A model generated the notes under the pieces. It saw only the letters and a program-made list of their open reading frames with translations, ran no database searches and was not told the origin of the DNA. Both the position numbers and the translations under genes were made by a program. A stretch of DNA of 59,121 nt, filler included. It is 5 parts of 5 records of this genome, joined end to end, with 100 filler letters (N's around TTAATTAATTAA, not from the genome) between each part and the next. Parts side by side here need not be neighbours in the genome. Positions count along the whole stretch, not along the records: positions 25,101 to 41,232 come from SRR31156797_2618; 4 more parts are not named here. One strand, 5' to 3'. Shown here one piece after another: positions 15,215 to 53,798 of this stretch (its first letter is position 1; every line of letters begins with the position of its first letter).

Positions 15215-15314
15215 NNNNNNNNNNNNNNNNNNNNNNNNNNNNNNNNNNNNNNNNNNNNTTAATTAATTAANNNNNNNNNNNNNNNNNNNNNNNNNNNNNN
15301 NNNNNNNNNNNNNN
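15215..15314. other. artificial contig-joining linker
   Basis: 44 N + TTAATTAATTAA (stops in all six frames) + 44 N. Confidence 0.98.
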
Positions 15315-25000: not shown

Positions 25001-25100
25001 NNNNNNNNNNNNNNNNNNNNNNNNNNNNNNNNNNNNNNNNNNNNTTAATTAATTAANNNNNNNNNNNNNNNNNNNNNNNNNNNNNNNNNNNNNNNNNNNN
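25001..25100. other. artificial contig-joining linker
   Basis: 44 N + TTAATTAATTAA + 44 N. Confidence 0.98.
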
Positions 25101-25274
25101 CTTGCCGCAGCCCGACTCCCCCACCAGGCCGATGGTCTCGCCCCGGAAGATATCCAGATCCACGCCGTCCACGGCCTTCACATGGCCCACGGTCTTCTTA
25201 AACACTCCCTTCTTGACGGGAAAATGGGTCTTTACGCCTCTCAGTTTCAGGAGGACATCTCTGTTCTTATCCAT
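25101..25274 (-). CDS. oligopeptide-type ABC ATPase OppF/DppF-like (3'-truncated)
   Basis: [30 protein letters not shown]. Confidence 0.88.
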
Positions 25275-26272
25275 TATTTGACAACCTCCTTCCAGTTCCA
25301 GCAGCGCACCCGCTGCTCCCCGTCGACCGTAGTTTCATCGGGCATGCGGTCGCAGGCCTCCGTGCGGAAATCGCAGCGGGGAGCGAACTGACAGCCCTTG
25401 GGGCGATCGAAGGGATCGGGCGTATTGCCGCGGATGGGCTCGATCTCCTGCTCCTTGCCCTTACCCAGGATGGGGATGGACTCCAGCAGGGCCTTGGTAT
25501 AGGGATGGGCGGGATGACGCAGGACCTGGTCCTTTGTGCCTCCCTCCACGATATTTCCCATGTACATGACCACTACGTCATCGGCCATCTCGGCCACCAC
25601 GCCCATATCGTGTGTGATCATCATAACGGCGGTTTCGTTCTCTTCTTTGAGCTTGTCCATCAGCTCGAAGATCTGGGCCTGTATGGTCACGTCCAGCGCC
25701 GTTGTCGGCTCGTCGGCGATCAGCACCTTGGGATCGCAGCTCATGGCCATGGCGATCATGGCCCTCTGACGCATGCCTCCGGAAAACTGATGGGGGTACT
25801 CAGCAAAGCGCTGCTCCGGCAGGGGGATGCCCATCTGCTTCAGGAGTTCGATGGAGCGCTCCTTCGCCTCCCTGCGGCTCATCTTCGTATGGCAGAGCAG
25901 ATTCTCCATAATCTGGAAGCCCACGGTGTAGACCGGATTGAGGGCGGTCATGGGATCCTGAAAGATCATGGAGATATCCCCTCCCCGGAGCTGCCTCATA
26001 ACCTTTCCGTTCCGGGGCTGAGCGTCTATGCGAACGGGCCCTTTGTCTGAGTGGTAGACGATGGAGCTGTCCTCTATCCGGCTCAGGGTGGGGAGGAGCT
26101 GCATGATGGAGGAGGCGGTCACGCTCTTGCCGCAGCCCGACTCGCCCACCACGCAGAGGGTTCTCCCCTTCTTCACCGAGAAGGAGACTCCGTTCACCGC
26201 CTTGTTGCAGCGGTTATTGGTATAGAAAAAGGTCTTCAGATCCTTTACTTCGATAATTACATCATCTTTCAT
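25274..26272 (-). CDS. oligopeptide-type ABC ATPase OppD/DppD-like
   Basis: [51 protein letters not shown]. Confidence 0.95.
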
Positions 26273-26287
26273 TGCATCATCCTTTCC

Positions 26288-27202
26288 TCATCCCTGCTGA
26301 GAGGGGTCGGTGCTGTCCCGCAGGCCGTCTCCGATCAGGTTGACGCTGAGGACGAAGAGAGAGATCACGATCCCCACGGGAAGCCATATCCACCAGTTAT
26401 CCTTGAGAACCGTGATATCCTGGGCCACATTGAGGATGTTTCCCCATGTGGGGATATTCAGAGGAACCCCCAGCCCCAGAAAGCTCAACGAGGTCTCCTG
26501 AAGGATAAACATGGCCGTGCTGAGGGTGATGTTTACCATGATGGGGCCGAAGGCGTTGGGCAGCATATGCTTGTAACAGATCATCAGATCGTTAAGGCCG
26601 AAGGCCCTGAGGGCCTGGACGTACTCCTCTTCCCGTATGGAGAGCATTCTGGCTCTGGTCTGCCGGTAGATTCCTCCCCAGCCGGAGAGCATAAAGATAA
26701 AGATCAGATTCCAGACGCTCGGCCCCACGATGGAAACCAGCAGCAGGACCAATATGATCCGGGGAAAGGACATCAGCATCTCCGAGATCCTCATCGCCAG
26801 CATATCCAGCTTGCCGCCCTTGTAGCCGGCGTAGCAGCCCACGCCCACGCCGATCAGGGCGGAGCCGAGGGCCGATCCGAGGCCGACGAGGATGGAGATC
26901 CGTCCGCCGTAAAGGATCCGGGCGTAAACGTCCCGTCCCGTCTTGTCCGTTCCGAACAGATGCTCCGACGAGGGAGCCTGCAGCCTGTTGATCACGTCCA
27001 CCTTCATGGGATCGTGACGGGTGAACAGGGGGGCGAATACGGTGGCTATCATGATCAGGGTGAAGATAACCAGTCCGACCACCGCCAGGCGGTTGGACAG
27101 GAACTTCTTCAGGCTCCGGTTCATCGTATCGTGCTTCAGCTTGCCCGCCTCTTCAAGAGCCCGGAGGCGGTCCATCTTTCTATCCAGTTTTGATTTTCCC
27201 AT
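26288..27202 (-). CDS. ABC permease OppC/DppC-like
   Basis: HLFGTDKTGRD, HMLPN, LSFLGLG, GDGLRD. Confidence 0.93.
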   Translation of the reverse strand: MGKSKLDRKMDRLRALEEAGKLKHDTMNRSLKKFLSNRLAVVGLVIFTLIMIATVFAPLFTRHDPMKVDVINRLQAPSSEHLFGTDKTGRDVYARILYGGRISILVGLGSALGSALIGVGVGCYAGYKGGKLDMLAMRISEMLMSFPRIILVLLLVSIVGPSVWNLIFIFMLSGWGGIYRQTRARMLSIREEEYVQALRAFGLNDLMICYKHMLPNAFGPIMVNITLSTAMFILQETSLSFLGLGVPLNIPTWGNILNVAQDITVLKDNWWIWLPVGIVISLFVLSVNLIGDGLRDSTDPSQQG

Positions 27203-27211
27203 ATACTCTTC

Positions 27212-28171
27212 CTAATCCAGTTTGATTCTCGGGTCCAGCAGGGCCGTAAAGAGGTCGACCAGAAAGCTGGCCACCAGCACCGCCATCACCGTAAACAGGG
27301 CGATCATCATAACCAGGGGCAGATTCTGACACTGCACCGCCGCTACGAATTCGTTGCCCACGCCGGGCCACTGAAAGACCTTCTCGATGACAACCGTTCC
27401 GCCGATAAGCATGGGCAGCCGGAATCCCACAAGGACGATAACGGGGGTCAGGGCGACCCGGAAGCCATGGATCAGATTGACTCTCCACTCGGGGAGCCCC
27501 TTGCTGCGGGCGGTCTTGATGTAGTCCTTGTTCATGGCGTCCAGCATGCTGGCCCGGGAGTATCGCATCACGCCGGCCGTCAGGGTAAAGGCGAGAACCG
27601 AAGCGGGCAGGATGATGTGGGGAAAGCGGTCCCAGAATGTTTCCATCCCCGGAAGGAGACGCCCCCCGTGGGGCAGCCATTCCAGGTTGAGAGCGAAGAT
27701 AAGGATCGCCACCAGACCGAAGAAGAAGCGGGGAATGGAGACCCCTATCATCCCCAGGACGGTCAGGGCGGTATCCGTACCCGAACCCTTCTTCAGGGCG
27801 CTGACAGTCCCCAGTACGCTGCCGATCAGGGTGGAGAACAGCAGAGCCGTCAGCGACAGCTCCAGCGTGGCCGGCAGCCGGTCGAAGACGATGTCCTTGA
27901 TGGGGACGCCGCTGGCCAGGGAGTATCCGAAGTCTCCCCGGAGCACTCCTCCCGCCCATTTGAAATAACGGACGAAGAAGGGATCGTTCAGTCCCAGACT
28001 GTCGCGCAGTTCATCCAGCGCCTCGGGAGACAGTTCCGACAGCATGTCCGGGCTGATCATGTAGGACACGGCATCGCCCGGGGTCATCTCTATCCCCAGG
28101 AAGACCAGAAAACTGATGACCACAATCATGGGGATGATGATCAACAGCCGTCTGATGGTAAAGGTCAGCAT
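27212..28171 (-). CDS. ABC permease OppB/DppB-like
   Basis: PGD, GDFGYS, RLPATLEL, DYIKTARSKGL, EKVFQWPG, LDPRI; ATG at 28171. Confidence 0.93.
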   Translation of the reverse strand: MLTFTIRRLLIIIPMIVVISFLVFLGIEMTPGDAVSYMISPDMLSELSPEALDELRDSLGLNDPFFVRYFKWAGGVLRGDFGYSLASGVPIKDIVFDRLPATLELSLTALLFSTLIGSVLGTVSALKKGSGTDTALTVLGMIGVSIPRFFFGLVAILIFALNLEWLPHGGRLLPGMETFWDRFPHIILPASVLAFTLTAGVMRYSRASMLDAMNKDYIKTARSKGLPEWRVNLIHGFRVALTPVIVLVGFRLPMLIGGTVVIEKVFQWPGVGNEFVAAVQCQNLPLVMMIALFTVMAVLVASFLVDLFTALLDPRIKLD

Positions 28172-29217
28172 ACACAACTCCTTTTACCAAGCTCGATTGA
28201 CTTGTTTCTGATAAATTTTAGTATGTTCATGGCGTAGAGATCAAAACCGGCATCCGAGGGATGCAGTCTTCCATCTCCCATATAGAGTTCGGAATGGGGG
28301 AAAAGCGCATCCCCGTCCAGAACGGTGATTTCGGGAAAGCCTTCGGCCATATCCCTCATGGTCTGCCTGAGCCCCCCGAAGCTTCCGACTCTGGATATCA
28401 TGGCCTCGTCTATCCTCCAGATGGGAGTCATGGCCAGGACGGGGATACCGGGATGGATGCGGGTCAGGGTTTCAAAGAACTCCCGGCAGCGCTCCCTGAA
28501 CTCATCCGGAGTGGCCCGGAGGTTCCAGTCGTTGGTTCCGTAGGCGCATACGACCATATCGGGACGGTAGGGCATCCCCCCATCAAGGGATGAGGCGTCG
28601 AAATAGTAACCCGCCACACCCTGATTAAGCATTTCCGCCTCAAGCACGGCCGAGAGGAGGACCGGATAGGTGTGGGAGGGATAAAGGGCGTCCATCCCCT
28701 GGGTAATCGAGTCTCCGAGAAAGAGGACCCGGCTTCGATCCTCCCGGGACGTCGGCCGCAGAGAGGCTCGGTGATCGATCTGTATCTCCCCGATATAGAC
28801 CTCGCAGCCGTAGGGAAGCAAGACCGTCAGGCGGACGTATCCGTCGTCGTCCCGAGAAGCCTCTTTGAGGGAGATATTCAGCTGACCCGTATCGTCCTTG
28901 ATGCGCTCCGAGCCCAGGCGCCCCGTGAAGGCGCCGTTGATATAGATATCGAACCAGGCGTGGTCCCGCAGAGCGTATCCCAACTCATACCAGATCTTGA
29001 CAAAGCCCGAATCGGTCATCAGGTCCAGGGCGATGCCGCTGCAGCAGCGAGCCCTGTTCAGGTACTCTGTGTCGCTCGTCCAGTCGGCCCGAGCTCCCGC
29101 CTCCCGGTACACATTCAGTTGAGCCTTTGTAAAGCGGAGAGGCAGGCTCCACCTGTCCGAATGCTCCACATCCAGACAGCCCGTAAAAAAGGACTTGACG
29201 ATCTGTCCCGTCTTCAT
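28165..29217 (-). CDS. SGNH/GDSL esterase (candidate sialate O-acetylesterase)
   Basis: FLGDSITQG, NQGVAG, YGTNDW, DGRLHP blocks. Start MKTGQ (29217) is coupled to the sulfatase stop. The substrate is inferred from context only. Confidence 0.85.
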   Translation of the reverse strand: MKTGQIVKSFFTGCLDVEHSDRWSLPLRFTKAQLNVYREAGARADWTSDTEYLNRARCCSGIALDLMTDSGFVKIWYELGYALRDHAWFDIYINGAFTGRLGSERIKDDTGQLNISLKEASRDDDGYVRLTVLLPYGCEVYIGEIQIDHRASLRPTSREDRSRVLFLGDSITQGMDALYPSHTYPVLLSAVLEAEMLNQGVAGYYFDASSLDGGMPYRPDMVVCAYGTNDWNLRATPDEFRERCREFFETLTRIHPGIPVLAMTPIWRIDEAMISRVGSFGGLRQTMRDMAEGFPEITVLDGDALFPHSELYMGDGRLHPSDAGFDLYAMNILKFIRNKSIELGKRSCVC

Positions 29218-30659
29218 AAGCGCCAGCCCCTCTGGGCGCTCAGGTTGCGATCGGGAACCCATTGATACTCTCTGTCGGGAAGACCGACCAGTTTTCCGTT
29301 TCGCAGCCATTCCAGATCGCCGCCGTAAAGCTCTTTCACAAGAAGGGCCTTCAATTCCTCCAGCACCGGTGCATGGTCAGGATCGTCTGCCAGGTTGCGC
29401 AGTTCCCGGGGATCCGCCTCCAGATCGAAGAGGAGGCTTCTGTTACCTGCTGCGTAGTAGATCAGCTTGAAGCGGTCCTTTCGGATCATACGGGTGGCCA
29501 GCTCGTCTTCGTTATGCTCGCCATAGATAGACTCACGGGATTCGGGGCCCAGCATATTCCGTCCCTCCACGGTCTCAGGGACTTCGATGCCGCAGAGATC
29601 CAGGACTGTGGGCATCACGTCCCGAAGACAGACCAGATTGTCCCGCACCTTCCCTTCAGGAGACATCCCCGCAGGGGGAACCAGGATCATGGGGATGCGG
29701 GCGCTGGACTCGAGCATCTCTCTCTTGCCCCAGAGTCCGTGATCCCCCAGGGCGTCGCCGTGATCGCAGGTGAAGAGGATCAGGGTGTTATCCAGCAGTC
29801 CCTCCTCCCAGAGGGTGCCGATCAACAGACGGATCTGATGATCTATATAGCTGCACTGGGCGTAGAATCCCCGTCTGGCCCGCAGATCGCCGTCCGGTTC
29901 GCTTGGGGTTCTCTTCCTGTTCATCTGGTTCTTAAGGCTGTAGGGAAGTGTCTCGGGATCGAGGGCCCAATCCCCTATCACCGGCCCGTCGATCGCCGCG
30001 TCACAGTACATATCCCAGTAGTCCCGGGGGGGCGTGATGGGGGGATGGGGGGCGATATAGGAACAGTACCAGAAGCCCGGCTTGTCGGGATTCCGCCTCT
30101 GGATGGCCCGGCACATGTTCTTCGTGGTCCAGTGAGTGGGATGGAGCTCCTCATCCAGATGCCAGGGTCTGACGCTGTACTGATTGACGCCCATACCGTG
30201 GGCCATCTCCGCTCCGGCATGGCCCTTGTCGGCCAGGAAGATCTCGTAGTCGTCCTTGAGCATTCCCAGATGATGGCGGCCCTCCTCGCAGATCAGGGCC
30301 TCATCGAAGCCGATCCTGTCCCGCTGGGGATAGACATGGAGCTTTCCCACCGCCGAGCTCTGATAACCGGCCCGTCTGAAGGTTTCGGCCATGGTGGGGA
30401 TGTCCCCTGGCATCCTGAGGGTCTGATTGAAGATCCTGTCCCCGTGAGTCCGTGCGGAGGTTCCGGTCATAAGACTACGCCTTGCCGGAATACAGGTGGG
30501 GTGGCAGGAGTAGGCGTTGCTGAACCTGACTCCGTTGTCGCAGAGCTGGTCCAGGGTCGGGGTATGGATATGGGCATGTCCCTCGCTTCCCAGGAGCCTG
30601 CCGGGCCAGTGATCCACGCAGATCATAAGCACGTTGGTTTTGGATTTTTCCGTCTTCAT
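29214..30659 (-). CDS. formylglycine-dependent sulfatase (Cys-type)
   Basis: CIPARRSLMTG, GKLH, APHPP, CDHGD..GDHGLWGK. Confidence 0.92.
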   Translation of the reverse strand: MKTEKSKTNVLMICVDHWPGRLLGSEGHAHIHTPTLDQLCDNGVRFSNAYSCHPTCIPARRSLMTGTSARTHGDRIFNQTLRMPGDIPTMAETFRRAGYQSSAVGKLHVYPQRDRIGFDEALICEEGRHHLGMLKDDYEIFLADKGHAGAEMAHGMGVNQYSVRPWHLDEELHPTHWTTKNMCRAIQRRNPDKPGFWYCSYIAPHPPITPPRDYWDMYCDAAIDGPVIGDWALDPETLPYSLKNQMNRKRTPSEPDGDLRARRGFYAQCSYIDHQIRLLIGTLWEEGLLDNTLILFTCDHGDALGDHGLWGKREMLESSARIPMILVPPAGMSPEGKVRDNLVCLRDVMPTVLDLCGIEVPETVEGRNMLGPESRESIYGEHNEDELATRMIRKDRFKLIYYAAGNRSLLFDLEADPRELRNLADDPDHAPVLEELKALLVKELYGGDLEWLRNGKLVGLPDREYQWVPDRNLSAQRGWRL

Positions 30660-30774
30660 TATGAATTGTCCTCGGAGCCTTATAACAGGGCCTTTAAGAA
30701 GGGGCAGGCCGCTCGCTAACGGGTCGTCCCGCCCCCGATTTTTTTACATTAAATCAGCATTCTGGTAAGAACCG

Positions 30775-32472
30775 TCAGTTCTTCTTGGGGTACTTGTTGA
30801 AGTAGATCAGCCGGGTATAGCGGATGTCTACGGGATGAACCGTCATGTTGTCCATCTCTTCGATGGCCTTTACGTCGGCCACGACCTTGGTGAAGGAGTA
30901 GTCGATCTTTCCGGCGTCCGCATTGATCACCAGATTGGGATCTCCGTCCTGGGAGGGGCTCATCATGATCTTCTCGATGTTTCCGCTTCCGCTCTTGTCC
31001 CAGTATCCCTTATAGGGGACCAGGGCGCAGTAGTCGTTCATGTTCACATCGTCGATGATAAAGGGACCCGTTCCCACGGGATGCTGCCAGAAGGGATCCT
31101 GCTGGGATTTCAGGGGATCCGAGTTCTTCAGAAGATGACTGGGGAGGGGAGGCCACTGGGAGAATGTGAACAGGGCGTCGGGATCGAGCTCTGCAAAGCT
31201 GATGGTGATCCTGTCGCCATCGACCTGGATTCCGCTGACAGAGTCGGCGCTGCCGTCCTTATAGGCCTTCGCGCCCTCGATGGAGGCATAGGTCTTCTCC
31301 ACAATGGGATTGATTCCGGGAACTTTCAGGGTGTACTCGACGGTAAAGACCACGTCCTCGGCGGTGAAGGGAGTTCCGTCGTGCCAGGTCACGTCGCTGC
31401 GAAGGTCCATGGTCAGGGTCAGGCCGTCCTCACTCATGGTATACTCCTCGGCCAGCTGTCCCTGAGAGGGGGTGAGAGAGCCGTCGGCGGTGATCAGGCG
31501 GTCGAAGAGGAACTTGTTGGTCATCATCAGTCCGGGGTTGACGAAGGTGCTCTGGAAGTACTCCATGGGCCCGGTGTTTACGTGAAGCACGCGCTCGCCC
31601 TTCTCGTCGGGTTCCACGTCCCAGTCAATGATGCGCCAGTTATAGGCGAACTGCTCATTGCCGTAGGGGATTCCTTTTCTGTCCACCCGGTCGCTTTCCA
31701 CGACGAAGACCTGCTGATAGTAGAAGGGCATGGCGTAGAGGGCCTTGTTCTCATACTCGGAGAGGGCGTGGTAGGCTTCCATCTGCTTGGCTACGTCCGC
31801 TGTGGCGCGGGTGGCCTTCACAAGGCGTTCATATTCGGCATCGGCAGGGGTATGGGAGTTGTTCTGAGCACCGGGGGCGAAGCGGTTGAAGAATCCTCCC
31901 AGCACGGCGGAACCGATGGCGCCGTATGCCATATCCCAGGTCACCTCGGCGGGTCCGTTCTCTATATCGGCGGGAGCGACCCAGAGCTGACCCGCGATAT
32001 CGCCGGTGACCTGACGGAAGGTCATCTTCATACCCACGTCAGCCAGATAGGCCTGCATGACGGTCATAAGGTCCACCGTGAGCTGATCGCCATAGTAATA
32101 GGCCACGTCCAGCACGTAATCGGGATCCCAGTTCGCCGCCTTCAGAAGGGCGCGCGCCTTGTCGGGATCGTACTTATAATAATCCAGTCCGTCGGCCTTC
32201 CAGGGGCCGTTCTCGATCAGGCTGTTGGCGGGAAGGGCCTTGCCTTCGAAGAGACTGCCGGTGACAGCATCGGCGTCGATGGCATAGGCGATGGCCTGCC
32301 TGACCCGGATATCGCTTAAGGGGTTGCTGTTGACAGGCCCCACCTGTTCCAGGGCGTAGTCCATATTCCCCGTATCAGTCGACACGACCTCGGCTTCCTT
32401 TTTGCAGCCGGCGACGAATAGTACTGAAGCCAGTACCGTAAGCACCAATAGGGTTCGATACACACTTTTCAT
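30775..32472 (-). CDS. family 5 (OppA/DppA-like) ABC substrate-binding lipoprotein, apparently circularly permuted
   Basis: Lipobox VAGC. PLSDIRVRQAIAYAID and YDPDKARALL come before FDRL..LAE..DGLTLT..LR..VTWHDGTPFTAEDV and PVGTGPF. Confidence 0.9.
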   Translation of the reverse strand: MKSVYRTLLVLTVLASVLFVAGCKKEAEVVSTDTGNMDYALEQVGPVNSNPLSDIRVRQAIAYAIDADAVTGSLFEGKALPANSLIENGPWKADGLDYYKYDPDKARALLKAANWDPDYVLDVAYYYGDQLTVDLMTVMQAYLADVGMKMTFRQVTGDIAGQLWVAPADIENGPAEVTWDMAYGAIGSAVLGGFFNRFAPGAQNNSHTPADAEYERLVKATRATADVAKQMEAYHALSEYENKALYAMPFYYQQVFVVESDRVDRKGIPYGNEQFAYNWRIIDWDVEPDEKGERVLHVNTGPMEYFQSTFVNPGLMMTNKFLFDRLITADGSLTPSQGQLAEEYTMSEDGLTLTMDLRSDVTWHDGTPFTAEDVVFTVEYTLKVPGINPIVEKTYASIEGAKAYKDGSADSVSGIQVDGDRITISFAELDPDALFTFSQWPPLPSHLLKNSDPLKSQQDPFWQHPVGTGPFIIDDVNMNDYCALVPYKGYWDKSGSGNIEKIMMSPSQDGDPNLVINADAGKIDYSFTKVVADVKAIEEMDNMTVHPVDIRYTRLIYFNKYPKKN

Positions 32473-32578
32473 AGAATCCTCCTGTTCTCATTTATCAGAC
32501 GAAGGCAGGGCGTCCTGCTTCGATCCGATTCTATTTTTCTTATCTCCGCCGCAGAACGGCAAAGCAAAAATACCAGAA

Positions 32579-34066
32579 TCAGCGCGCGCCGGGCCTCTCT
32601 TCAAAGAAAGTCGTGGCGTCCACCTGTCCCGATCCGCTGCGCCAATTCCCGAAAAACTTGCTGACGCAGTCCCTCAGTGGATCTCCCGTTTCCGCGGTCA
32701 ACCGCATCAGACGCCGCCGCATTTCATCAAGCTTTTCCGCAGATTCGCCGCTCCGCAGAAGATTGCGCATCTCCCCCGGATCACTATTCAGATCGTAAAG
32801 CTCATCGTAATCTCCGGGCGTGAAGATAAGCTTCCATCCGTCATCACTGACAAGGGCTCTCTGGGAGTAGAGGAACCTCAGGCCGTGGAACTCCAGAAGC
32901 AGCTCCTCTCTGCGGCTCCGACCCTCGAGATCCTCCAGAGCATGTGCCAGGGAGATACCGTCGAGGCCCTCCGGGAGATCGATGCCGCAGAGCTCCATCA
33001 GGGTGGGCATGATGTCCATATTCATGGCCAGATCCTCCCGGGCGCCGGCCTTGAAACGGCCCTTTCCGTAGAAGACCAGAGGGATGTGCTGAGCCTCCTC
33101 ATAGAGGAGTCCCTTGTCCATCAGCCCCCCGTGGGAGCCGGTCATATCCCCGTGATCTGTTGAAAACACCACCACCGTGTCCTCGGCCAGGCCGCTCTCT
33201 TCCAGCCAGTCCATCATACGGCCTAGCTCGTAGTCCAGCATGGCGCTGCAGTCGTAGTAGCGGGCCGTGATCTCGGCGGCCTTCTTCCAGTCGGAAGGAT
33301 GGTCCTTATAGAAGTCATCCCTTTCCCTGCGGATGCGTCGGGGCTTCTCAGAGAGATCGTCGCCAAAGCTGGGCCAGGGCTCGATCGACTCCGGATCGTG
33401 CATGCCGTAGAACTCGTCCGAAGGCATATGGGGGCCGTGGGGACCCCAGAACTGACAGGTCAGGAAAAAGGGTGTGCCTTCGTCCCGATACCGGCTCATA
33501 AGCTCCTTGCTCTTCTCCACCAGATAGTGTCCGGGGGTGGATTCCTGGGGACCTCCCCATCTCCCGGCGACAAGGGTCTGGCCGTCGGGATTGAGAAAGA
33601 TCTCGGGATGCGGTTCGTAGGCCAGTCCCCGCTCCTCCAGATAGGAACGGAAGCCCTCGTCCTCTCGGATGTTCCCGTAGCCCGGCAGGTTCATACCCTC
33701 GAAGCCGTAGTCTCCGGGGCCCATATTCGTTCCCACATGCCACTTCCCCGTATAGGCGCAGCGGTATCCGGCATCCTGAAAGGAGCTGTGGAGCAGTTCC
33801 TCAGGACGAGGGAGCTCGGCTGCCAGAGAGTGGTACATATCGCAATTGGTACCCATGCCGTGACGGAAGGCGTACTGTCCGGTGAACATGGACGCCCTGG
33901 CGGGGGAGCAGAGGGTGCAGGGCGTATAGGCCCTCTCGAAACGGACGCCCTCCCGGGCCAGACGATCGATATTCGGGGTCCGGCAGTGGAAATTTCCGTT
34001 ATGCGAAAGGGTGTCGAAACGAAGCTGATCCGCCCCGATCCACAGCACATTGGGACGACTCTTCAT
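32579..34066 (-). CDS. formylglycine-dependent sulfatase (Cys-type)
   Basis: PNVLWIGADQLR, CSPARASMFTG, GKWH, GPHGP, TDHGD; ATG overlaps the nanA stop (TGATG). Confidence 0.93.
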   Translation of the reverse strand: MKSRPNVLWIGADQLRFDTLSHNGNFHCRTPNIDRLAREGVRFERAYTPCTLCSPARASMFTGQYAFRHGMGTNCDMYHSLAAELPRPEELLHSSFQDAGYRCAYTGKWHVGTNMGPGDYGFEGMNLPGYGNIREDEGFRSYLEERGLAYEPHPEIFLNPDGQTLVAGRWGGPQESTPGHYLVEKSKELMSRYRDEGTPFFLTCQFWGPHGPHMPSDEFYGMHDPESIEPWPSFGDDLSEKPRRIRRERDDFYKDHPSDWKKAAEITARYYDCSAMLDYELGRMMDWLEESGLAEDTVVVFSTDHGDMTGSHGGLMDKGLLYEEAQHIPLVFYGKGRFKAGAREDLAMNMDIMPTLMELCGIDLPEGLDGISLAHALEDLEGRSRREELLLEFHGLRFLYSQRALVSDDGWKLIFTPGDYDELYDLNSDPGEMRNLLRSGESAEKLDEMRRRLMRLTAETGDPLRDCVSKFFGNWRSGSGQVDATTFFEERPGAR

Positions 34067-34992
34067 CAAAGCGTCTCCAGGAAGTCGATTCCTTCAATCT
34101 TGTATTCTTCTTTTATCCTGTAGAAATCTCTTTTCAGTTGATCCTCTTCGGCGGATGTCAGGTTGATAAAGGGGCTGCGGCAGTAACCCGCGTCAATGCC
34201 CATCCAGCTGAGGGCGCGCTTCATCATGCCCACGTAGTTCCCTCTCGTGCAGTGAACGATCAGGGCGTTGGCCATGGCCTGGATCTCTTCCGCCCTCTTG
34301 TAATCACCCGATTTCATAGCGTCGTAAATCCTGATGAAGACCTCGGGCATCAGGTTGTAAAAGGAGCCGATCAGACCGTCGGCCCCGAAGGAAAGGCCCG
34401 AAAGAGACATCTCATCGCAGCCCGAGTAGATCATAAAATCTTTTCCGATCTCCTCCTTCATCCTCATGATCTCAAAGTGGCTTGTGGCGGTATACTTTAC
34501 CCCGTCCACGCCTTCGATATCGGCAAATCTCTTGAGCTGATCATAACCCACCAGACCGGCCAGGGGGATATTGTAGACCACCATGGGGATCTCAACAGAA
34601 TTCGTTATCTCTTTATAGTATTTAAAGATACTATCATCTGTAAATTTCCAGTAGAAGGGAGGAACAGAGGAGACCGCATCGGCCCCGGCGCTCTCGGCCT
34701 GCCGGGCCAGATCGATGGATACCTTTGTTCCGATGGCACCGACATGAACGATCACGGGAATACGTCCGGCCACCTGATCGATCACAATGGTAACGACTCG
34801 CTTGCGCTCCTCGGGACTCATCAGAAAACCTTCTCCGGTGCTTCCGGTCAGATACAGACCGGTAACGCCCTTCTTAATCAGATGCTCAACCAGTTGCCGC
34901 ATCCCCTCTTCGTGCAGAGATTCATCCTCTTTGAAAGGGGTAATCAACGCCGGGATGACGCCTTTTATATCCTTAAGACTTGTTCTTGACAT
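34066..34992 (-). CDS. nanA: N-acetylneuraminate lyase-like (DHDPS/NanA family)
   Basis: GLYLTGSTGEGF, VPPFY, VYNIP, GVKYT Schiff-base Lys, GLIGSFYN; an AGE epimerase lies in the same cluster. Confidence 0.8.
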   Translation of the reverse strand: MSRTSLKDIKGVIPALITPFKEDESLHEEGMRQLVEHLIKKGVTGLYLTGSTGEGFLMSPEERKRVVTIVIDQVAGRIPVIVHVGAIGTKVSIDLARQAESAGADAVSSVPPFYWKFTDDSIFKYYKEITNSVEIPMVVYNIPLAGLVGYDQLKRFADIEGVDGVKYTATSHFEIMRMKEEIGKDFMIYSGCDEMSLSGLSFGADGLIGSFYNLMPEVFIRIYDAMKSGDYKRAEEIQAMANALIVHCTRGNYVGMMKRALSWMGIDAGYCRSPFINLTSAEEDQLKRDFYRIKEEYKIEGIDFLETL

Positions 34993-35049
34993 ATATCATT
35001 CTCCTGATTTTCGGGCCTCAGCCCTTCCGGAAAGCCTCTCTTTCCAAAC

Positions 35050-35134
35050 TTGTATACCAGAATAACTCTCTTTTTTCCGATTTGTCAATAAATAATATTG
35101 ATCTTTCCATATCTTCGTATACAATTGGATACAT
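35050..35134. promoter_or_regulatory. divergent promoter region with three GntR/FadR-like boxes
   Basis: TTGTATACCA (35050-35059), TCGTATACAA (35115-35124), TTGGATACAT (35125-35134). Minus-strand TTGACA at 35088-35083; plus-strand TTGATC-16-TACAAT at 35098-35125. Confidence 0.6.
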
Positions 35135-35156
35135 TCATATTCCAAGGAACTCTACG

Positions 35157-36608
35157 ATGAAGAAAAGAAACGTACTGCTGATAATCTCCGACCAACACAG
35201 GCAGGAGGCCATGGGCTGCCGCGGAAACGGCATCGTCCGGACACCTCATATGGACAGACTCTTCTCACGGGGCGTGCTGTTCGACAGAGCCCTCTCGCCC
35301 GCCCCCCTCTGCGGCCCCGCCCGCTGCTCCATCTTTTCGGGGCTCTACCCCCATCAGGCCGTCGGGATACTGCAGCCCGAAGCTCTGGGAGCCCGGGACG
35401 AGCTGGAATGCGGAGTGGAAACGGATATGATGCTCAACACCAGCTCCCTGAGAGAGCCCGACCATCTGACACGCCCTTTCAAAGAGGACGGCTACTACAC
35501 GGCCTATGCGGGGAAATGGCATCTGGGCAATGACATCCTCCCCGATTGGTTTGAGAACTGTTGTGGAGAGGATAACAAGCAGTACTGCGACTGGCTGGAG
35601 AAAGAAGGGCTGCCTCCCACGGGATGGTCTCTCAAGGATTCTGAAGTACGAAGTGAGAGGATTCCACCCATGTCCATACCCCGGACAAAGGCAAGCCCCG
35701 TCACAGGCGAACAGTATAACGACGCCTGGATCGCCGATCTGGCCCTGAACTATATGAGGGAGAGACCGAAGGACGTCCCCTTCTTTATCAGCTGCGGCTT
35801 CAACGGCCCCCATCCCCCCTTTATGATCCCCGAGCCCTGGTACTCCATGTATGATCCCGAAACCATACCCGAGCCCGCGAACTTCCATCCCGGCAAGGGA
35901 GAGCCCGCGTGCAAGGGGAACAGTTTCTACAGGCAATTGTGGAAGGATCACGGCGAGGACTGGGCCGCCTGGAAGAAGAGCATGGCCGTCTACTACGGAT
36001 TCGTCTCCTACATAGACCATCAGATAGGACGGCTCACAGCCGAGTTGGAGGAGCAGGGAGCGCTGGACGACACCCTGATTATCTATACCAGCGATCACGG
36101 CGAGATGCTGGGCAGCCACGGTCTCTGGCACAAGATGCAGGCCTACGAAGAGTCCCTGAGAGTTCCCCTCCTGTTCAGCGCGCCCTGGCTGCCACAGGGC
36201 AGGCACAGCCAGGCGGGGGCCTCTCTTCTGGATATTCCCTCCACCATCCTCTCCCAGAGCGGCTACCCCGTCCCCGATGTCTACGAGGGAGAGGATCTCA
36301 GCCCCGCACTGGCCGATCCCGAAGCCGAGGCGCCCGTCCGATACCTCTTCTCCGAGCAGAAGCCTCTGGGCCGCTTTCACAAGGAATCGGACTGGCGGAT
36401 GATCACGGATAATAGCTACAAGCTGATATGGAACAGGGACGATATCTTTGAACTGTACGATCTGCAATGCGATCCTTCGGAGCTTGTCAATCTTGCGGGA
36501 AAAGAAGAGATCCTGCCGATAGAGGCCGAGCTGAAAAGAAGACTGGAAACCTGGATGGAAAATACCGGTGACGACCTGATCCGGGACTACAGAGGAGGGG
36601 CGTCATGA
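35157..36608 (+). CDS. formylglycine-dependent sulfatase (Cys-type)
   Basis: Start MKKRNVLLIISDQHR (35157), CGPARCSIFSG, GKWH, GPHPP, SDHGEMLGSHG. Confidence 0.93.
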   Translation: MKKRNVLLIISDQHRQEAMGCRGNGIVRTPHMDRLFSRGVLFDRALSPAPLCGPARCSIFSGLYPHQAVGILQPEALGARDELECGVETDMMLNTSSLREPDHLTRPFKEDGYYTAYAGKWHLGNDILPDWFENCCGEDNKQYCDWLEKEGLPPTGWSLKDSEVRSERIPPMSIPRTKASPVTGEQYNDAWIADLALNYMRERPKDVPFFISCGFNGPHPPFMIPEPWYSMYDPETIPEPANFHPGKGEPACKGNSFYRQLWKDHGEDWAAWKKSMAVYYGFVSYIDHQIGRLTAELEEQGALDDTLIIYTSDHGEMLGSHGLWHKMQAYEESLRVPLLFSAPWLPQGRHSQAGASLLDIPSTILSQSGYPVPDVYEGEDLSPALADPEAEAPVRYLFSEQKPLGRFHKESDWRMITDNSYKLIWNRDDIFELYDLQCDPSELVNLAGKEEILPIEAELKRRLETWMENTGDDLIRDYRGGAS

Positions 36609-37300
36609 AGATCGAGACTATGGAACAGAAAAAAACATCCTATGAACACCTGAAGGAGTTGATCCTCGAGTACAGGATCGAACGCCATCATCGTTTCACC
36701 GAGGCCCAGCTGGCGGAGATTCTGAACACATCCCGCATCCCCGTACGGGAAGCGGTGCAGAAGCTGCTGCTGGAAGGCTATATGGAACGCCATGAGAAGA
36801 GCGGTTACCGGATCACAGAGTTCTCCCCTCAGGACGTGATCGATATCTACAACTACAGAGAGGCTCTGGACGGTATGCTGACCAGGCTCTTCACAGAGAG
36901 GATGGACGCCACTCAGCTTTTCTGCCTGGAGACCAATCTGAAGTCTATGGAAGAGGCCCTGGATATACCCGAAGAGAGATTCGACCAGACCCGATTCTCC
37001 CGCATGGACCAGGAGTTCCACCGCATCATCGCCCGGGGCGCCCACAATCGCCTGATGGAACAGCAGCATGAGCTGATCCTGGAGAAGATCATCTATATAG
37101 CGGGACGAAACCACAGGGATTTCAAGGACAGCCGGGAGGACCTGATCAACTATGAGAGTTTCAAAGACTCCTACCATCAGCATAAGGAGATATTCGAGGC
37201 CGTTCGCAAACGCGATCCCGATGGGGCCGAACGCCTGGCCAGGCTCTCGGTCCGCAACGGACTGAAAAAGAACCTGAAGATCATGTACGGACAGTACTGA
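36605..37300 (+). CDS. GntR family regulator (FCD domain)
   Basis: EAQLAEILNTSRIPVREA HTH; DQEFHRII..AHN; HKEIFEAV..RDPD. Confidence 0.92.
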   Translation: MKIETMEQKKTSYEHLKELILEYRIERHHRFTEAQLAEILNTSRIPVREAVQKLLLEGYMERHEKSGYRITEFSPQDVIDIYNYREALDGMLTRLFTERMDATQLFCLETNLKSMEEALDIPEERFDQTRFSRMDQEFHRIIARGAHNRLMEQQHELILEKIIYIAGRNHRDFKDSREDLINYESFKDSYHQHKEIFEAVRKRDPDGAERLARLSVRNGLKKNLKIMYGQY

Positions 37301-37311
37301 AGGACAAGATT

Positions 37312-39009
37312 ATGACAAAGAACGAACAACAGGCCATGTCCTCTTCCCAGAGCCATCTCTACAGGATGGAACAGCTGATGAAGAAAGACGAAAGGCCCAA
37401 TATCCTGCTGATCATGACCGACCAGCAGAGGGCCGACAGCGTGGGCGCCTGGGGCAGCCCCTTTATGAAAACACCCCATATGGACCGCCTGGCCGCGGAA
37501 GGACGGCTCTACCGGAACGCCTACTCCCCCAACCCGATCTGCATGCCCGCCAGGCATAATCTGCTCACCGGGCTTACCGCCAGATACCACGGCTACCCGG
37601 ATAACTGCTGGGGCTTCGGCATGCCCCCGGGACTCCCCACCTTCCCCGAAATCCTCTCGGATAACGGCTACGAAACCCGGACAATAGGCAAGAACCACTT
37701 CTACCCTCCCCGCCGGCACAACGGTTACCTCAATATGGAGCTGATGCAGGAGGTCCCCGCCTTCCGGGAGCAGGATGACTACCTCATGTACCTGAAGGAT
37801 CAGGGCCTGGGCCACGTCTCCAACATCCACGGCGTCAGAAATCTGCTCTATATGGTGCCCCAGCAGTCCCAGATCCCCACAGAGCACCACGGCACCAACT
37901 GGGCGGCAGACAGAGCCATAGACTTTATCACGACCAACAACGGACGCCATCCCTGGATGCTCAAACTGGGTTGGATAGCGCCCCATCCCCCCTTCGACGT
38001 TCCCCCCGAATACGCGGATATGTACAAGGATGCGGAGTTACCCGAGCCCCTGAAATCGGAAACGGTAACCAGCCCGCTGGCCGAAGAGAACAGGATGCTG
38101 GGGGATCTGCCGAACGAGAAATACATCCGGCGGATGCGTGAGCTCTATTACGCCGCCGTCTCCCATATAGACGACAACCTGGGCCGCGTCCTCGCCGGCC
38201 TGGAGGAAACGGGACAGCTGGATAATACGCTGATCATCTTCACCAGCGACCACGGAGAGATGCTGGGAGACCACGGGACCTACCAGAAGTGGTTGCCCTA
38301 CGACAGCTGCGCCCGCATCCCCCTGATCATCCGCTATCCCGGAAAGGTAAAAGCGGGAGAGGTCAGCGAGGAACTGGTGGATCTGAACGATCTCTACCCC
38401 ACCATCCTCGAGGCGGCGGGGCTGGACTACCCGGGCGACCATAAGCTGCCCGGCGAGAGCCTTATCGCCGATTCCCCGGAAAAAGACCGGCGCTACCAGT
38501 ATATAGAGTACTCCACGGGCTCCCGCCGCTGGATCAGCCTGAGGGACGAGAGATACAAATACAACTACTACTTCGGCGGCGGTCGGGAAGAGCTCTTCGA
38601 CCTTGCAGTAGATCCGGGGGAGTGCCGGAATCTGATGGACACGGCTCCCGGCGCGTCCCTTCCCGAAGGCCTGCAGGCCCACAGAAACCGGCTACGCGCA
38701 GCCCTGATCCGCTATGAAGAGACCTGGGGACTAACGGATAGCGTGGTCGATGGCGATCTGGAGATCAGGGCCCCGTACGAACCCAAGCCCTACCGCAACC
38801 AAGCCTTCCCGGTCTTTCAGAACAAGCTCACCGATCCCGGGGAACGTGAGGCCATGAACGCTCATCTTGATGAGGTCCTGGAGGTCAGCCGCAGGGAGGC
38901 GCTCGTTCGTTTCCGGGATCTGGACCTGGCATGCTGGCAAAAAAACGGCGGTTACAGCGACAAAAAGATAGAAGAACTATTACAAAAGGAAGAGGTATTG
39001 AAAAGATGA
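37312..39009 (+). CDS. formylglycine-dependent sulfatase (Cys-type)
   Basis: PNILLIMTDQQR, CMPARHNLLTG, GKNH, APHPP, SDHGEMLGDHG; the true start may be slightly downstream. Confidence 0.93.
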   Translation: MTKNEQQAMSSSQSHLYRMEQLMKKDERPNILLIMTDQQRADSVGAWGSPFMKTPHMDRLAAEGRLYRNAYSPNPICMPARHNLLTGLTARYHGYPDNCWGFGMPPGLPTFPEILSDNGYETRTIGKNHFYPPRRHNGYLNMELMQEVPAFREQDDYLMYLKDQGLGHVSNIHGVRNLLYMVPQQSQIPTEHHGTNWAADRAIDFITTNNGRHPWMLKLGWIAPHPPFDVPPEYADMYKDAELPEPLKSETVTSPLAEENRMLGDLPNEKYIRRMRELYYAAVSHIDDNLGRVLAGLEETGQLDNTLIIFTSDHGEMLGDHGTYQKWLPYDSCARIPLIIRYPGKVKAGEVSEELVDLNDLYPTILEAAGLDYPGDHKLPGESLIADSPEKDRRYQYIEYSTGSRRWISLRDERYKYNYYFGGGREELFDLAVDPGECRNLMDTAPGASLPEGLQAHRNRLRAALIRYEETWGLTDSVVDGDLEIRAPYEPKPYRNQAFPVFQNKLTDPGEREAMNAHLDEVLEVSRREALVRFRDLDLACWQKNGGYSDKKIEELLQKEEVLKR

Positions 39010-40067
39010 CATCCAAAGAGCGCGTATTGAATACCCTGGATCACAAAGAGACGGACCGAGTGCCCCTGATGTACAGGGACGTTCCCGAGGTCAGAAACCG
39101 GATAAAACATGATCTTCAGATACGAAGCGATGAGGAGCTCTTCCGGCATTTCGGTATAGATTTCCGCTGGGTAGGGCCCCGTTGGACAGGCCCTGAACTG
39201 ATGATCTCCGAAACAGAGAAGAAGGACCACTGGGGAGTGGAGTGGATCTACACAGAGTTTGAGGACGGCGCCGGCTACTGGAACGAGAAGTCCTGCCCCA
39301 TGCGGGAGATGGAGAGTGCCCGGGAGGCGGAGGCCTGGCCCGTCCCCGAACTGGACTGGTGGGACTTCTCAAGCCTCAGCGCCGACTGCGACGCCTACTC
39401 AGACTACGCCGTGATGACCGCCCCTGGCTACAGCTCTCCGGGGATCTTCCAGTTTCCCATCCAGTCCCTGATCGGCGTGGAGCGCAGCCTGATGGACATG
39501 TACGTCAATCCCGATTTCCTCAACGCCCTGATAAAAAGGATTCAGAGTTTTCAGCTTCCCTATGTTCGGAAGATGATGGAAGCGGCGGAAGGGAAGATCG
39601 ATTTCTTCCGCCTGGGCGACGACTTCGGCACCCAGCAGAGCCTCCTGATGGGCCCAGATCCCTGGCGGGAGTTTATCGGTCCCGCCCTGAAGGCCATGGC
39701 CGACATCGCCAAGGAACAGGGAGCCCGCTACTACCAGCACAGCTGCGGCGCCGTCCGCCCCCTGATCCCCGACTTCATAGAAATAGGAGTCGACGTGCTC
39801 GACCCCCTGCAGGTCCTGGCGGAGGGGATGGTCCCCTCGGAACTGAAGGCTGAGTTCGGAGACAGGATCTGCTTCTCCGGAGGCGTGGACGAGCAGGAGC
39901 TCCTCCCTCACGGCAAGCCTGAAGAGGTGAAGGAAGCTGTCTGGTGTCTGCTGGATGATATGAGGGGAGGAGGCTTTATTCTGGGCCCCACCCACAACTT
40001 TCAGGCCGACATCCCCACCGACAATATCGTGGCCATGTACGAGGCCGCTGCGGAATGGAAAGGATAA
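39006..40067 (+). CDS. uroporphyrinogen decarboxylase / MtaA-CmuA methyltransferase superfamily protein
   Basis: MTSKERV..DRVP, DHWG, GDDFGTQ..LLMGP, HSCG, GGVDEQ..LP.G, GPTHNFQ; start at 39006. Confidence 0.85.
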   Translation: MTSKERVLNTLDHKETDRVPLMYRDVPEVRNRIKHDLQIRSDEELFRHFGIDFRWVGPRWTGPELMISETEKKDHWGVEWIYTEFEDGAGYWNEKSCPMREMESAREAEAWPVPELDWWDFSSLSADCDAYSDYAVMTAPGYSSPGIFQFPIQSLIGVERSLMDMYVNPDFLNALIKRIQSFQLPYVRKMMEAAEGKIDFFRLGDDFGTQQSLLMGPDPWREFIGPALKAMADIAKEQGARYYQHSCGAVRPLIPDFIEIGVDVLDPLQVLAEGMVPSELKAEFGDRICFSGGVDEQELLPHGKPEEVKEAVWCLLDDMRGGGFILGPTHNFQADIPTDNIVAMYEAAAEWKG

Positions 40068-40071
40068 GAAG

Positions 40072-41232
40072 ATGACGAAAGAAAGAATCAGAGAGCTGAA
40101 AGATTTTTATTACAACGAGATGGTTAACGACGTAATCCCCTTCTGGCTGGACAACGCCCTGGACCGGGAGTACGGCGGCTATATGGACTTCCTGGACAGA
40201 ACGGGCAAGCCCCTGTCCACCGATAAGGGGGGCTGGGTACAGGGACGTACGGTCTGGGTCTTTTCCACCCTCTACAGGGATGTGGAAGAGCGGAAGGAGT
40301 GGTACGAAGCCGCCGAGCTGGGGGTGCGTTTTATCAGGGAGAAACTCCGGCGCAAAGAGGACGGACGGGTCTACTTCGAGGTAAGCCGTGAGGGAGAGCC
40401 CCTGGTGATGCGCCGCTACCTCTTCTCCGAGGTCTTCGCCTGTATCGGTCTGGCCGCCTGGTCGGAGATCTCCGGCGACAAAGAGGCCCTGGAAGAGGCC
40501 CGGGAGCTCCTTGCCCTGATCGACAGGCTCTCCGAATCGGGGGAACTGGAATCCAAAATAGATCCTGCCACGCGTCTTATGCGGGGCCACTCCATGACCA
40601 TGATGATGATCAGCCTCTGCCAGATCCTCCGCCGGGCAGATCCCGCGGGAGAGACCCACTATACCGAGAGGATAGACAGGCAGATCGACGAACTCTTCCG
40701 CTACTTCGTGAAGCCCGACAGAAAGGTTCTCCTGGAGACAGTCGGCCCCGGGGGAGAGATCACAGAGGGCCCCGAAGGACGCTGCATCAATCCCGGCCAT
40801 GCCATAGAAACCGCCTGGTTTATCTTCGATGAGGCCGAGTACAGGGGCGACAAGGCTCTGCTGGAAAAGGCCCTGCCCATCATGAACTGGTCCATAGAAA
40901 GGGGCTGGGACAAAGAGTACGGCGGGATCTTCTCCTTCCTGGACGCCGACGGAAAGCATCCCGCTCAGGTGGAGTGGGACATGAAGTACTGGTGGCCCCA
41001 CTGCGAGGCCCTGATCGCCTTCCTCCAGGCCTACGATATGACGGGAGAGGAGCGTTACGAGAAGTGGTTTGAAAGGATCCACGACTACACATGGAAGCGC
41101 TTCCCCGACCGGGAGCACGGAGAGTGGTTCGGCTACCTCCGCCGGGACGGATCGGTGCAGGTGGAGCTGAAGGGCAACCACTTCAAGGGGCCCTTCCATA
41201 TCCCCCGTCTTCTGATAAGATGCTATAAGCGA
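40072..41232 (+). CDS. N-acylglucosamine 2-epimerase (AGE family), 3'-truncated
   Basis: PFW..D.EYGG, DKGGWVQGR, NPGHAIE..WF, KYWWPHCE, GEWFGYL, KGPFHIPR. Confidence 0.92.
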
Positions 41233-41332
41233 NNNNNNNNNNNNNNNNNNNNNNNNNNNNNNNNNNNNNNNNNNNNTTAATTAATTAANNNNNNNNNNNN
41301 NNNNNNNNNNNNNNNNNNNNNNNNNNNNNNNN
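41233..41332. other. artificial contig-joining linker
   Basis: 44 N + TTAATTAATTAA + 44 N. Confidence 0.98.
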
Positions 41333-53698: not shown

Positions 53699-53798
53699 NN
53701 NNNNNNNNNNNNNNNNNNNNNNNNNNNNNNNNNNNNNNNNNNTTAATTAATTAANNNNNNNNNNNNNNNNNNNNNNNNNNNNNNNNNNNNNNNNNNNN
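53699..53798. other. artificial contig-joining linker
   Basis: 44 N + TTAATTAATTAA + 44 N. Confidence 0.98.

Follow-up and report, generated by a model that had tools for sequence, protein, structure and literature searches.

Natural circular permutation of a family 5 solute-binding lipoprotein and the occurrence of both chain orders in its family

Does a gene whose product carries the two halves of a peptide-binding-type protein in the reverse of the usual order encode a naturally permuted protein, and if so, what might such a protein bind and how did its order arise? This question is raised by P0001, a family 5 (cluster C) solute-binding lipoprotein of 565 aa encoded at positions 30775–32472 (minus strand) of the DNA analysed here. 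Few components of ABC transporters have been studied as thoroughly as the cluster C binding proteins. The window, i.e. the whole stretch of 59,121 nt, consists of five contigs separated by N/AT spacers at 15215–15314, 25001–25100, 41233–41332 and 53699–53798, with GC contents of 0.58, 0.46, 0.58, 0.60 and 0.51 in order. Open reading frames that reach a spacer are cut; the P0001 gene lies on the piece 25101–41232.

Chain order and predicted structure of P0001

The assignment of P0001 was based on its reading frame, phmmer and Pfam matches and an AlphaFold2 model. The gene is one frame without interruption, as the preliminary description had claimed, and all motifs quoted there are present in the translation in the swapped order that it gave. 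A signal peptide with the lipobox Cys23 at its end is encoded at 32404–32472. It is followed by half B (residues 47–284; 31621–32334), which forms the C-terminal half in the normal order and was delimited by comparison with DppA 299–491 and with 7kz9. A new linker (residues 285–294; 31591–31620), recognized by its length and a W-x7-G pattern, leads from the old C-terminus to the old N-terminus and lies where the junction had been expected, near 31580–31640. Half A (residues 295–561; 30790–31590), the N-terminal half in the normal order, comes last; it corresponds to DppA 36–236 and 4oet and stops just past the RLIYFN strand. All of these parts are on the minus strand. A hairpin-like stretch 3′ of the gene was considered as a terminator and rejected, since it folds no better than shuffled sequences (z −0.08) and no minus-strand terminator was called. 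No plasmid match to the gene was observed at 1e-40.

In phmmer searches against the PDB, residues 299–491 of the DppA chain 8z1z matched P0001 47–238 (i-E 3e-12), and residues 36–236 of the same chain matched P0001 300–494 (i-E 6e-8). The Pfam profile SBP_bac_5 scored 209.2 bits (gathering score 32.4) in two stretches, the better of which places profile positions 4–208 on residues 338–560; two partial matches had indeed been predicted. With a profile of 77 homologues, no collinear full-length match was found in the PDB: the best chain reached 134 bits, and the best stretch for each PDB chain listed covered one half only. The half profiles and the fold are based on the alignment underlying this profile as well (A1, 77 rows), in which one row (P0069) has the normal order. 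The accessible part of PMC8519434 describes the family 5 signature LA..W..S.D...TF.LR, and residues 341–359 of P0001 align with this motif of DppA, with Tyr replacing Trp. According to the same part of that source, the first lobe of cluster C proteins comprises two domains and takes in both ends of the chain, and the second lobe is one continuous segment; in SapA, domain Ia comprises residues 35–68, 230–312 and 532–561, domain Ib 69–229 and domain II 313–531. P0001 departs from this canonical order (Ia-Ib-Ia, II, Ia tail) in that its halves are swapped. It misses the NCBIfam equivalog cut-offs for DppA (72.8 vs 1005) and OppA (27.9 vs 947), and an ESM Atlas search returned SBP_bac_5 clusters only. 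P0001 is a cluster C binding protein that has undergone natural circular permutation.

The AlphaFold2 model of P0001 has a mean pLDDT of 93.0 and a pTM of 0.87. Its sole low-confidence part is the tether at residues 21–36 (about; pLDDT <50), with none at the junction. Solved structures match the model only half by half. In VIA-align comparisons, NikZ (4oet, 1–241) was superposed on residues 287–553 with a Z-score of 21.3 (rmsd 2.7, 239 aligned), and AapF (7kz9, 275–494) on residues 47–274 with a Z-score of 21.2 (rmsd 2.3, 199 aligned). No single row among the 50 from VIA-align covers both halves in full, and Foldseek TM-scores were at most 0.38 among the matches listed. Identities to solved chains in the structural alignments range from 16 to 27%. 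The two-lobe fold is predicted by the model to be retained.

The chain is opened in the loop that links the end of the N-K-[FY] strand to the P-L-x-D-x-R-V-R-Q-A helix. Of 240 permuted sequences (a redundant set), 232 start at the latter motif. The old termini are bridged by a 10-residue turn, the linker at residues 285–294. In the same redundant set, the linker gap is as long as that of P0001 in 191/240 sequences and the W-x7-G pattern is present in 190/240; it occurs in the P0001 clade, the Bacillus/Sphaerochaeta clade and the alphaproteobacterial clade, and G292 of the linker is invariant in alignment A1. Another 40 of the 240 sequences (the clade of L031, L062, L082 and P0163) carry a linker that is three residues shorter, a difference that stems from a deletion or from an origin of its own. 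The second lobe of DppA presumably begins at about mature-chain residue 262, and the cut in P0001 would accordingly fall just past the first strand of lobe 2. A cut at this place would leave both hinge crossings covalent and shift the lipid tether from lobe 1 to lobe 2. The new C-terminal strand may complete the sheet of lobe 2, and Venus-flytrap closure and docking to the permease would then be unharmed by the permutation.

The assembly was assessed by means of independent sequence data. In a run from a different study, the complete P0001 gene is contained in one 10,597-nt contig, which differs from the window by 36 bases and one gap, the latter outside the ORF. A 365-nt contig from the putative source run spans the junction, and a Logan protein, encoded on a contig that is also 10,597 nt long, is 98.9% identical to P0001 over residues 1–565. 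In run X1, low-depth contigs about 86–89% identical to the gene were observed (window 30740–32163), a sign that a further, related strain or species was present in this run. The best 120 of 4940 P0001 matches are 48–99% identical, with an Oceanispirochaeta protein as the nearest named relative among them (74%). With the order called by separate profiles for each half, 119 of these 120 homologues and all 80 genome loci kept from 503 in GTDB are permuted, so that the collinear full-length homologues asked for in the preliminary description do exist. The 80 loci belong to Spirochaetota (36), Bacillota (19), Pseudomonadota (14), genomes labelled Myxococcota (4) and Thermotogota (1), with six assigned to no phylum. 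One of them, L197 from the family of G004, is syntenic with the window, and 8 of the 38 genomes of that family contain a collinear match. An assembly artefact or a broken gene was rejected as wholly improbable, as the entire gene lies inside one independent contig, 119 collinear homologues are 48–99% identical to it and the GC3 values of the two halves are close (0.76 and 0.81). Neither a collinear alignment to a canonical protein nor a misassembly was found, and sequence, predicted structure, collinear homologues and independent assembly agree on a natural permutation rather than a fragment. The swap of the P0001 type is a real, widespread natural permutation that is common to many bacteria.

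Gene neighbourhood and candidate ligand

The P0001 gene is flanked by two sulfatase genes. An SGNH hydrolase gene and oppBCD(F) lie downstream of it, and a NanA-like gene upstream. The sulfatases directly upstream (32579–34069) and directly downstream (29214–30659), both PF00884 and on the minus strand, are accompanied on that strand by an SGNH/GDSL hydrolase that is a possible acetyl esterase (28165–29310; PF13472), an OppB/DppB-type permease (27212–28177; PF00528 and PF19300), an OppC/DppC-type permease (26288–27202; PF00528 and PF12911), an OppD-type ATPase (25274–26272; PF00005 and PF08352) and the start of a second, OppF-like ATPase (25101–25274), which is cut at the contig end and resembles the gene at the same place in L081 and L083. 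The NanA-like gene of the N-acetylneuraminate lyase family (34066–34992, minus strand) has a GSTGE motif and NCBIfam PRK04147 as its best match; since its score of 270.9 bits is below the cut-off of 281, this is a best match and not a certified NanA. On the plus strand, the divergent side of the cluster carries two further sulfatases (34980–36608 and 37312–39009; both PF00884), and an N-acylglucosamine 2-epimerase (AGE) family gene (40072–41232; PF07221) is cut at the contig end. The latter scores 377.6 bits against NF052547, below the cut-off of 600.

Across the 80 loci, matches to OppB (orthologous to the OppB/DppB-type permease of the window), OppC and OppD were observed in 78, 77 and 74 loci, respectively. 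By tblastn, a NanA-like gene was detected in 57/80 loci and in 39 of the 45 that are at least 19 kb long; AGE-type epimerases were found in 22 of the 80, NanE in 14, NagA in 8 and NanR-like regulators in 39, and NanA occurs together with NanE or AGE in 34/80. In L185, the gene order is rpiR-SBP-oppBCDF-nanA-two hydrolases-nanE-ROK kinase, and the NanE of L078 scores above its cut-off (306.8 vs 189). In the 72 control loci, taken from distant family 5 members, NanA, NanE and AGE were all absent; these control loci are shorter (619 kb vs 1377 kb in total, with 15/72 reaching 15 kb). The presence of NanA-like genes in 57/80 loci and in 0/72 controls makes a sialic-acid-type sugar the likely ligand, and from this gene context we consider a nonulosonate-type ligand probable for P0001. 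The accessible part of PMC10952124 contains nothing on a transporter of the P0001 type. The preliminary description had proposed a distinct sugar-binding subfamily. The sugar-binding part is supported, as a prediction, by the nan-type gene context; the permutation does not define the subfamily, which includes normal-order members (see below).

Residues of the binding pocket were compared as well. In DppA, the dipeptide is held by R383 and D436, as described in the accessible part of PMC12136057, and these positions fall on a gap and an Ala of P0001 in a loose phmmer alignment. R554 is the same in all 71 in-family sequences compared; K529, Q274, N299 and T553 are almost invariant within the family and seldom seen in the outgroup. 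Judged from conservation, these five residues are candidates for contacting a sugar acid.

It is less likely, though a serious alternative, that the ligand of P0001 is no sialic acid but a different sugar acid, a sulfated oligosaccharide or else a peptide. Four sulfatases flank the gene, the NanA-like gene scores under its cut-off, and peptides, nickel or opines are the ligands of the nearest solved relatives. On the other hand, NanE and genes for ROK kinase, NagA, YhcH and NanR-like regulators recur around family members, and the dipeptide-binding residues of DppA are unmatched in the loose alignment with P0001. Ligands may also differ across the family, given that 23/80 loci have no NanA in the DNA examined, some of these loci being short, and that alphaproteobacterial and SAR324-type loci carry SDR and HpcH-type aldolase genes. 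In the SAR324-type and Rhodobacteraceae loci (L018, L019, L021, L022, L028, L043 and L044), genes adjoining the transporter encode a PLP-aminotransferase-domain protein of 775 aa, an HpcH-type aldolase, an RraA-like protein and an SDR, suggesting a different sugar-acid pathway.

P0001 would likely serve the adjoining OppBCD(F)-type importer and capture sialic acid or a modified nonulosonic acid. From the gene context, the four sulfatases and the SGNH hydrolase may strip sulfate or acetyl groups, and the imported sugar may be split by the NanA-like lyase and then passed to the epimerase.

Both chain orders within one family

In a search with representative sequences, proteins of normal order (AB) scored as high as permuted ones (BA), with 691 bits for P0160. 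A search with the AB protein P0069 yielded 47 new proteins (31 AB, 15 BA and a single fragment), and Clostridium and Proteiniclasticum are among the named sources of AB members. AB members within the subfamily of P0001 share its gene context and show 45–58% identity per half. An AB form at least 63% identical to P0375 is present in 13 of 284 scored genomes of the family of G001. Twelve of these 13 loci were fetched wide (G244, with a match near a contig end, was left out), and in these clostridial loci NanA is nearby in 12/12 and NanE in 11/12. The AB proteins closest to P0001 are 54–58% identical to it per half (P0069 58% in half A; P0341 54% and 55%), compared with 45% between the two AB proteins P0069 and P0375.

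To place the two orders, phylogenetic trees were calculated. In an IQ-TREE analysis of both halves, with 51 rows picked from 85 dereplicated ones, P0069, P0341 and P0162 group with the P0001 clade (98/96), and together they fall within a clade of 21 rows, most of them BA (100/100). BA forms one side in none of the bootstrap trees of this analysis, and a single clade of all permuted rows was rejected (AU p=0.00034), the tested group being defined by chain order and with FastTree results known beforehand. A mixture model without the long-branched P0162 (29 rows) gave P0069 and P0341 as sister to the P0001 clade (100/99) within an enclosing permuted clade (98/100), the backbone being a polytomy. 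Each half alone (29 rows) also places P0069 and P0341 with the P0001 clade (89/85 for half A and 100/99 for half B), and a single clade of all permuted rows was again rejected (AU p=0.005 and 0.040, respectively). In the permease tree, calculated with L036 left out, the backbone was not resolved. As AB proteins are nested among permuted ones, the order changed at least twice. Linker length and pattern are the same through all permuted clades, which favours a single origin followed by at least one reversal. We therefore lean towards a reversal rather than repeated gains, although several observations count against it. The backbone is a polytomy, 40 of the 240 permuted sequences have the shorter linker, and no close duplicated intermediate was found (see below). 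The A-to-B loop of P0069 and P0341, moreover, has 11 residues, as in other in-family AB proteins (35/38), and a loop of ancestral length is expected if it was inherited and not rebuilt.

This loop fits an alternative that we regard as improbable though worth weighing, namely that the normal order was kept down to the P0069 lineage and the permuted order was gained several times independently, each time at one permissive loop. The backbone polytomy is also compatible with it, as is the permease tree, in which the short-linker permuted clade groups with the AB clostridia on an unstarred branch (SH 89). Against it, at least three gains would be needed, all with one cut point and the same W-x7-G linker (190/240), and in the binding protein trees the short-linker clade lies inside a starred permuted clade. 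Recombination could likewise account for both the close kinship with the P0001 clade and the loop of ancestral length, if an AB gene of the P0069 lineage had both halves overwritten by a permuted donor and kept its old loop. Such a mosaic seems quite unlikely: two separate exchanges from one donor clade would be required, and a second family copy is absent from the five genomes searched and from the eight matching genomes of the G004 family.

One permutation followed by a reversal thus stays our preferred course. Together with an intact permuted lipoprotein, an OppBCD(F) importer, a sialic or nonulosonic ligand and at least two changes of order, it forms the reading that we favour overall, with a probability of roughly 0.7.

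Duplicated intermediates were searched for among proteins of 990–2825 aa. Among 35 matches, three were ABAB, all of them distant (best 117 bits), which is weak evidence of absence. A 1016-aa ABAB protein was rejected as a family intermediate, as it belongs to a distant Methanophagales cluster. The tandem ABAB family 5 proteins P0228 (of this cluster), P0122, P0123 and P0128 are 1016–1102 aa long and distant; they are of the kind required for a permutation via duplication, and their existence shows that this route occurs in cluster C. A metagenome scan for the P0069 locus returned permuted loci, fragments or distant proteins only, and in 401 genomes of the class of G002, G002 alone matched. The searches also yielded proteins of other architectures. 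P0168 combines an unrelated N-terminal region with a partial AB family member and is probably a chimeric assembly. P0237 (919 aa) carries a region with a GGDEF motif ahead of a distant family relative, a possible diguanylate cyclase-sensor fusion, and P0249, P0263 and P0271 (929–973 aa) resemble it in length and match position. In P0126–P0156, family 5 binding domains are fused to MCP signalling (PF00015) or protein kinase/AAA domains (PF00069, PF13191).

Relation to known systems and implications

Compared with canonical cluster C proteins (PF00496) such as E. coli DppA (1dpp/8z1z), C. jejuni NikZ (4oet), Pseudomonas AapF (7kz9) and Listeria CtaP (5isu), P0001 shares both halves by sequence and by fold (Z about 21, rmsd 2.3–2.7) as well as OppBCDF-type partners. 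Unlike them, it has its halves swapped, its termini in a loop of the second lobe and a new linker. Natural circular permutations are known from saposins and swaposins, concanavalin A and DNA methyltransferases. P0001 resembles these in combining the same fold with shifted termini and a short linker at the old termini. It differs from them in that both orders occur at 54–58% identity and the normal order is nested in the permuted one. In the literature searched, with subscription journals outside its scope, no permuted family 5 or peptide-binding protein was found.

With SatABCD (ST3; H. ducreyi SatA, 5yyb/5z99/5za4), the P0001 family has in common a family 5 binding protein and nan-type clusters. 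According to the accessible part of Severi et al. (2021, PMC8461474), ST3 is found in Actinobacteria and Pasteurellaceae, has a single origin and contains SatC, a permease-ATPase fusion. The P0001 family, in contrast, has separate OppC and OppD genes and no SatC-type fusion, and compared with the distribution given there it occurs in Spirochaetota, Bacillota and Alphaproteobacteria. SatA scores 65.6 bits against the P0001 family profile, half of the 128–133 bits of DppA. In the part of PMC5583593 that was accessible, the NanABC2 column of Table S6 is filled for two B. breve rows and apparently empty in four clostridial rows. Considering the low SatA score, the distribution and fusion of ST3 and the NanABC2 column, the P0001 family looks like an origin of predicted sialic-acid uptake that is separate from SatABCD, as far as these partly accessible sources extend. 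That the order was swapped once, that the swapped form spread over several phyla and was then undone in the sister lineage of P0001 and that, in addition, the family is an undescribed independent origin of sialic-acid uptake is a combination we put forward only tentatively.

A permuted chain is new for cluster C with respect to the solved structures and the literature found. P0001 on the one side and P0069 and P0341 on the other, with opposite orders at 54–58% identity per half, are natural pairs for testing the effects of chain ends and tether. They allow a direct test of what the placement of the termini and the membrane anchor does to folding, hinge motion and permease docking. The AB sister lineage offers a rare handle on the reversibility of permutations, with regard to both mechanism and direction. 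Automatic pipelines label the family ‘peptide/nickel transport’; in both of its orders, it is a candidate for the import of sialic acid by bacteria from marine, sediment and gut habitats.
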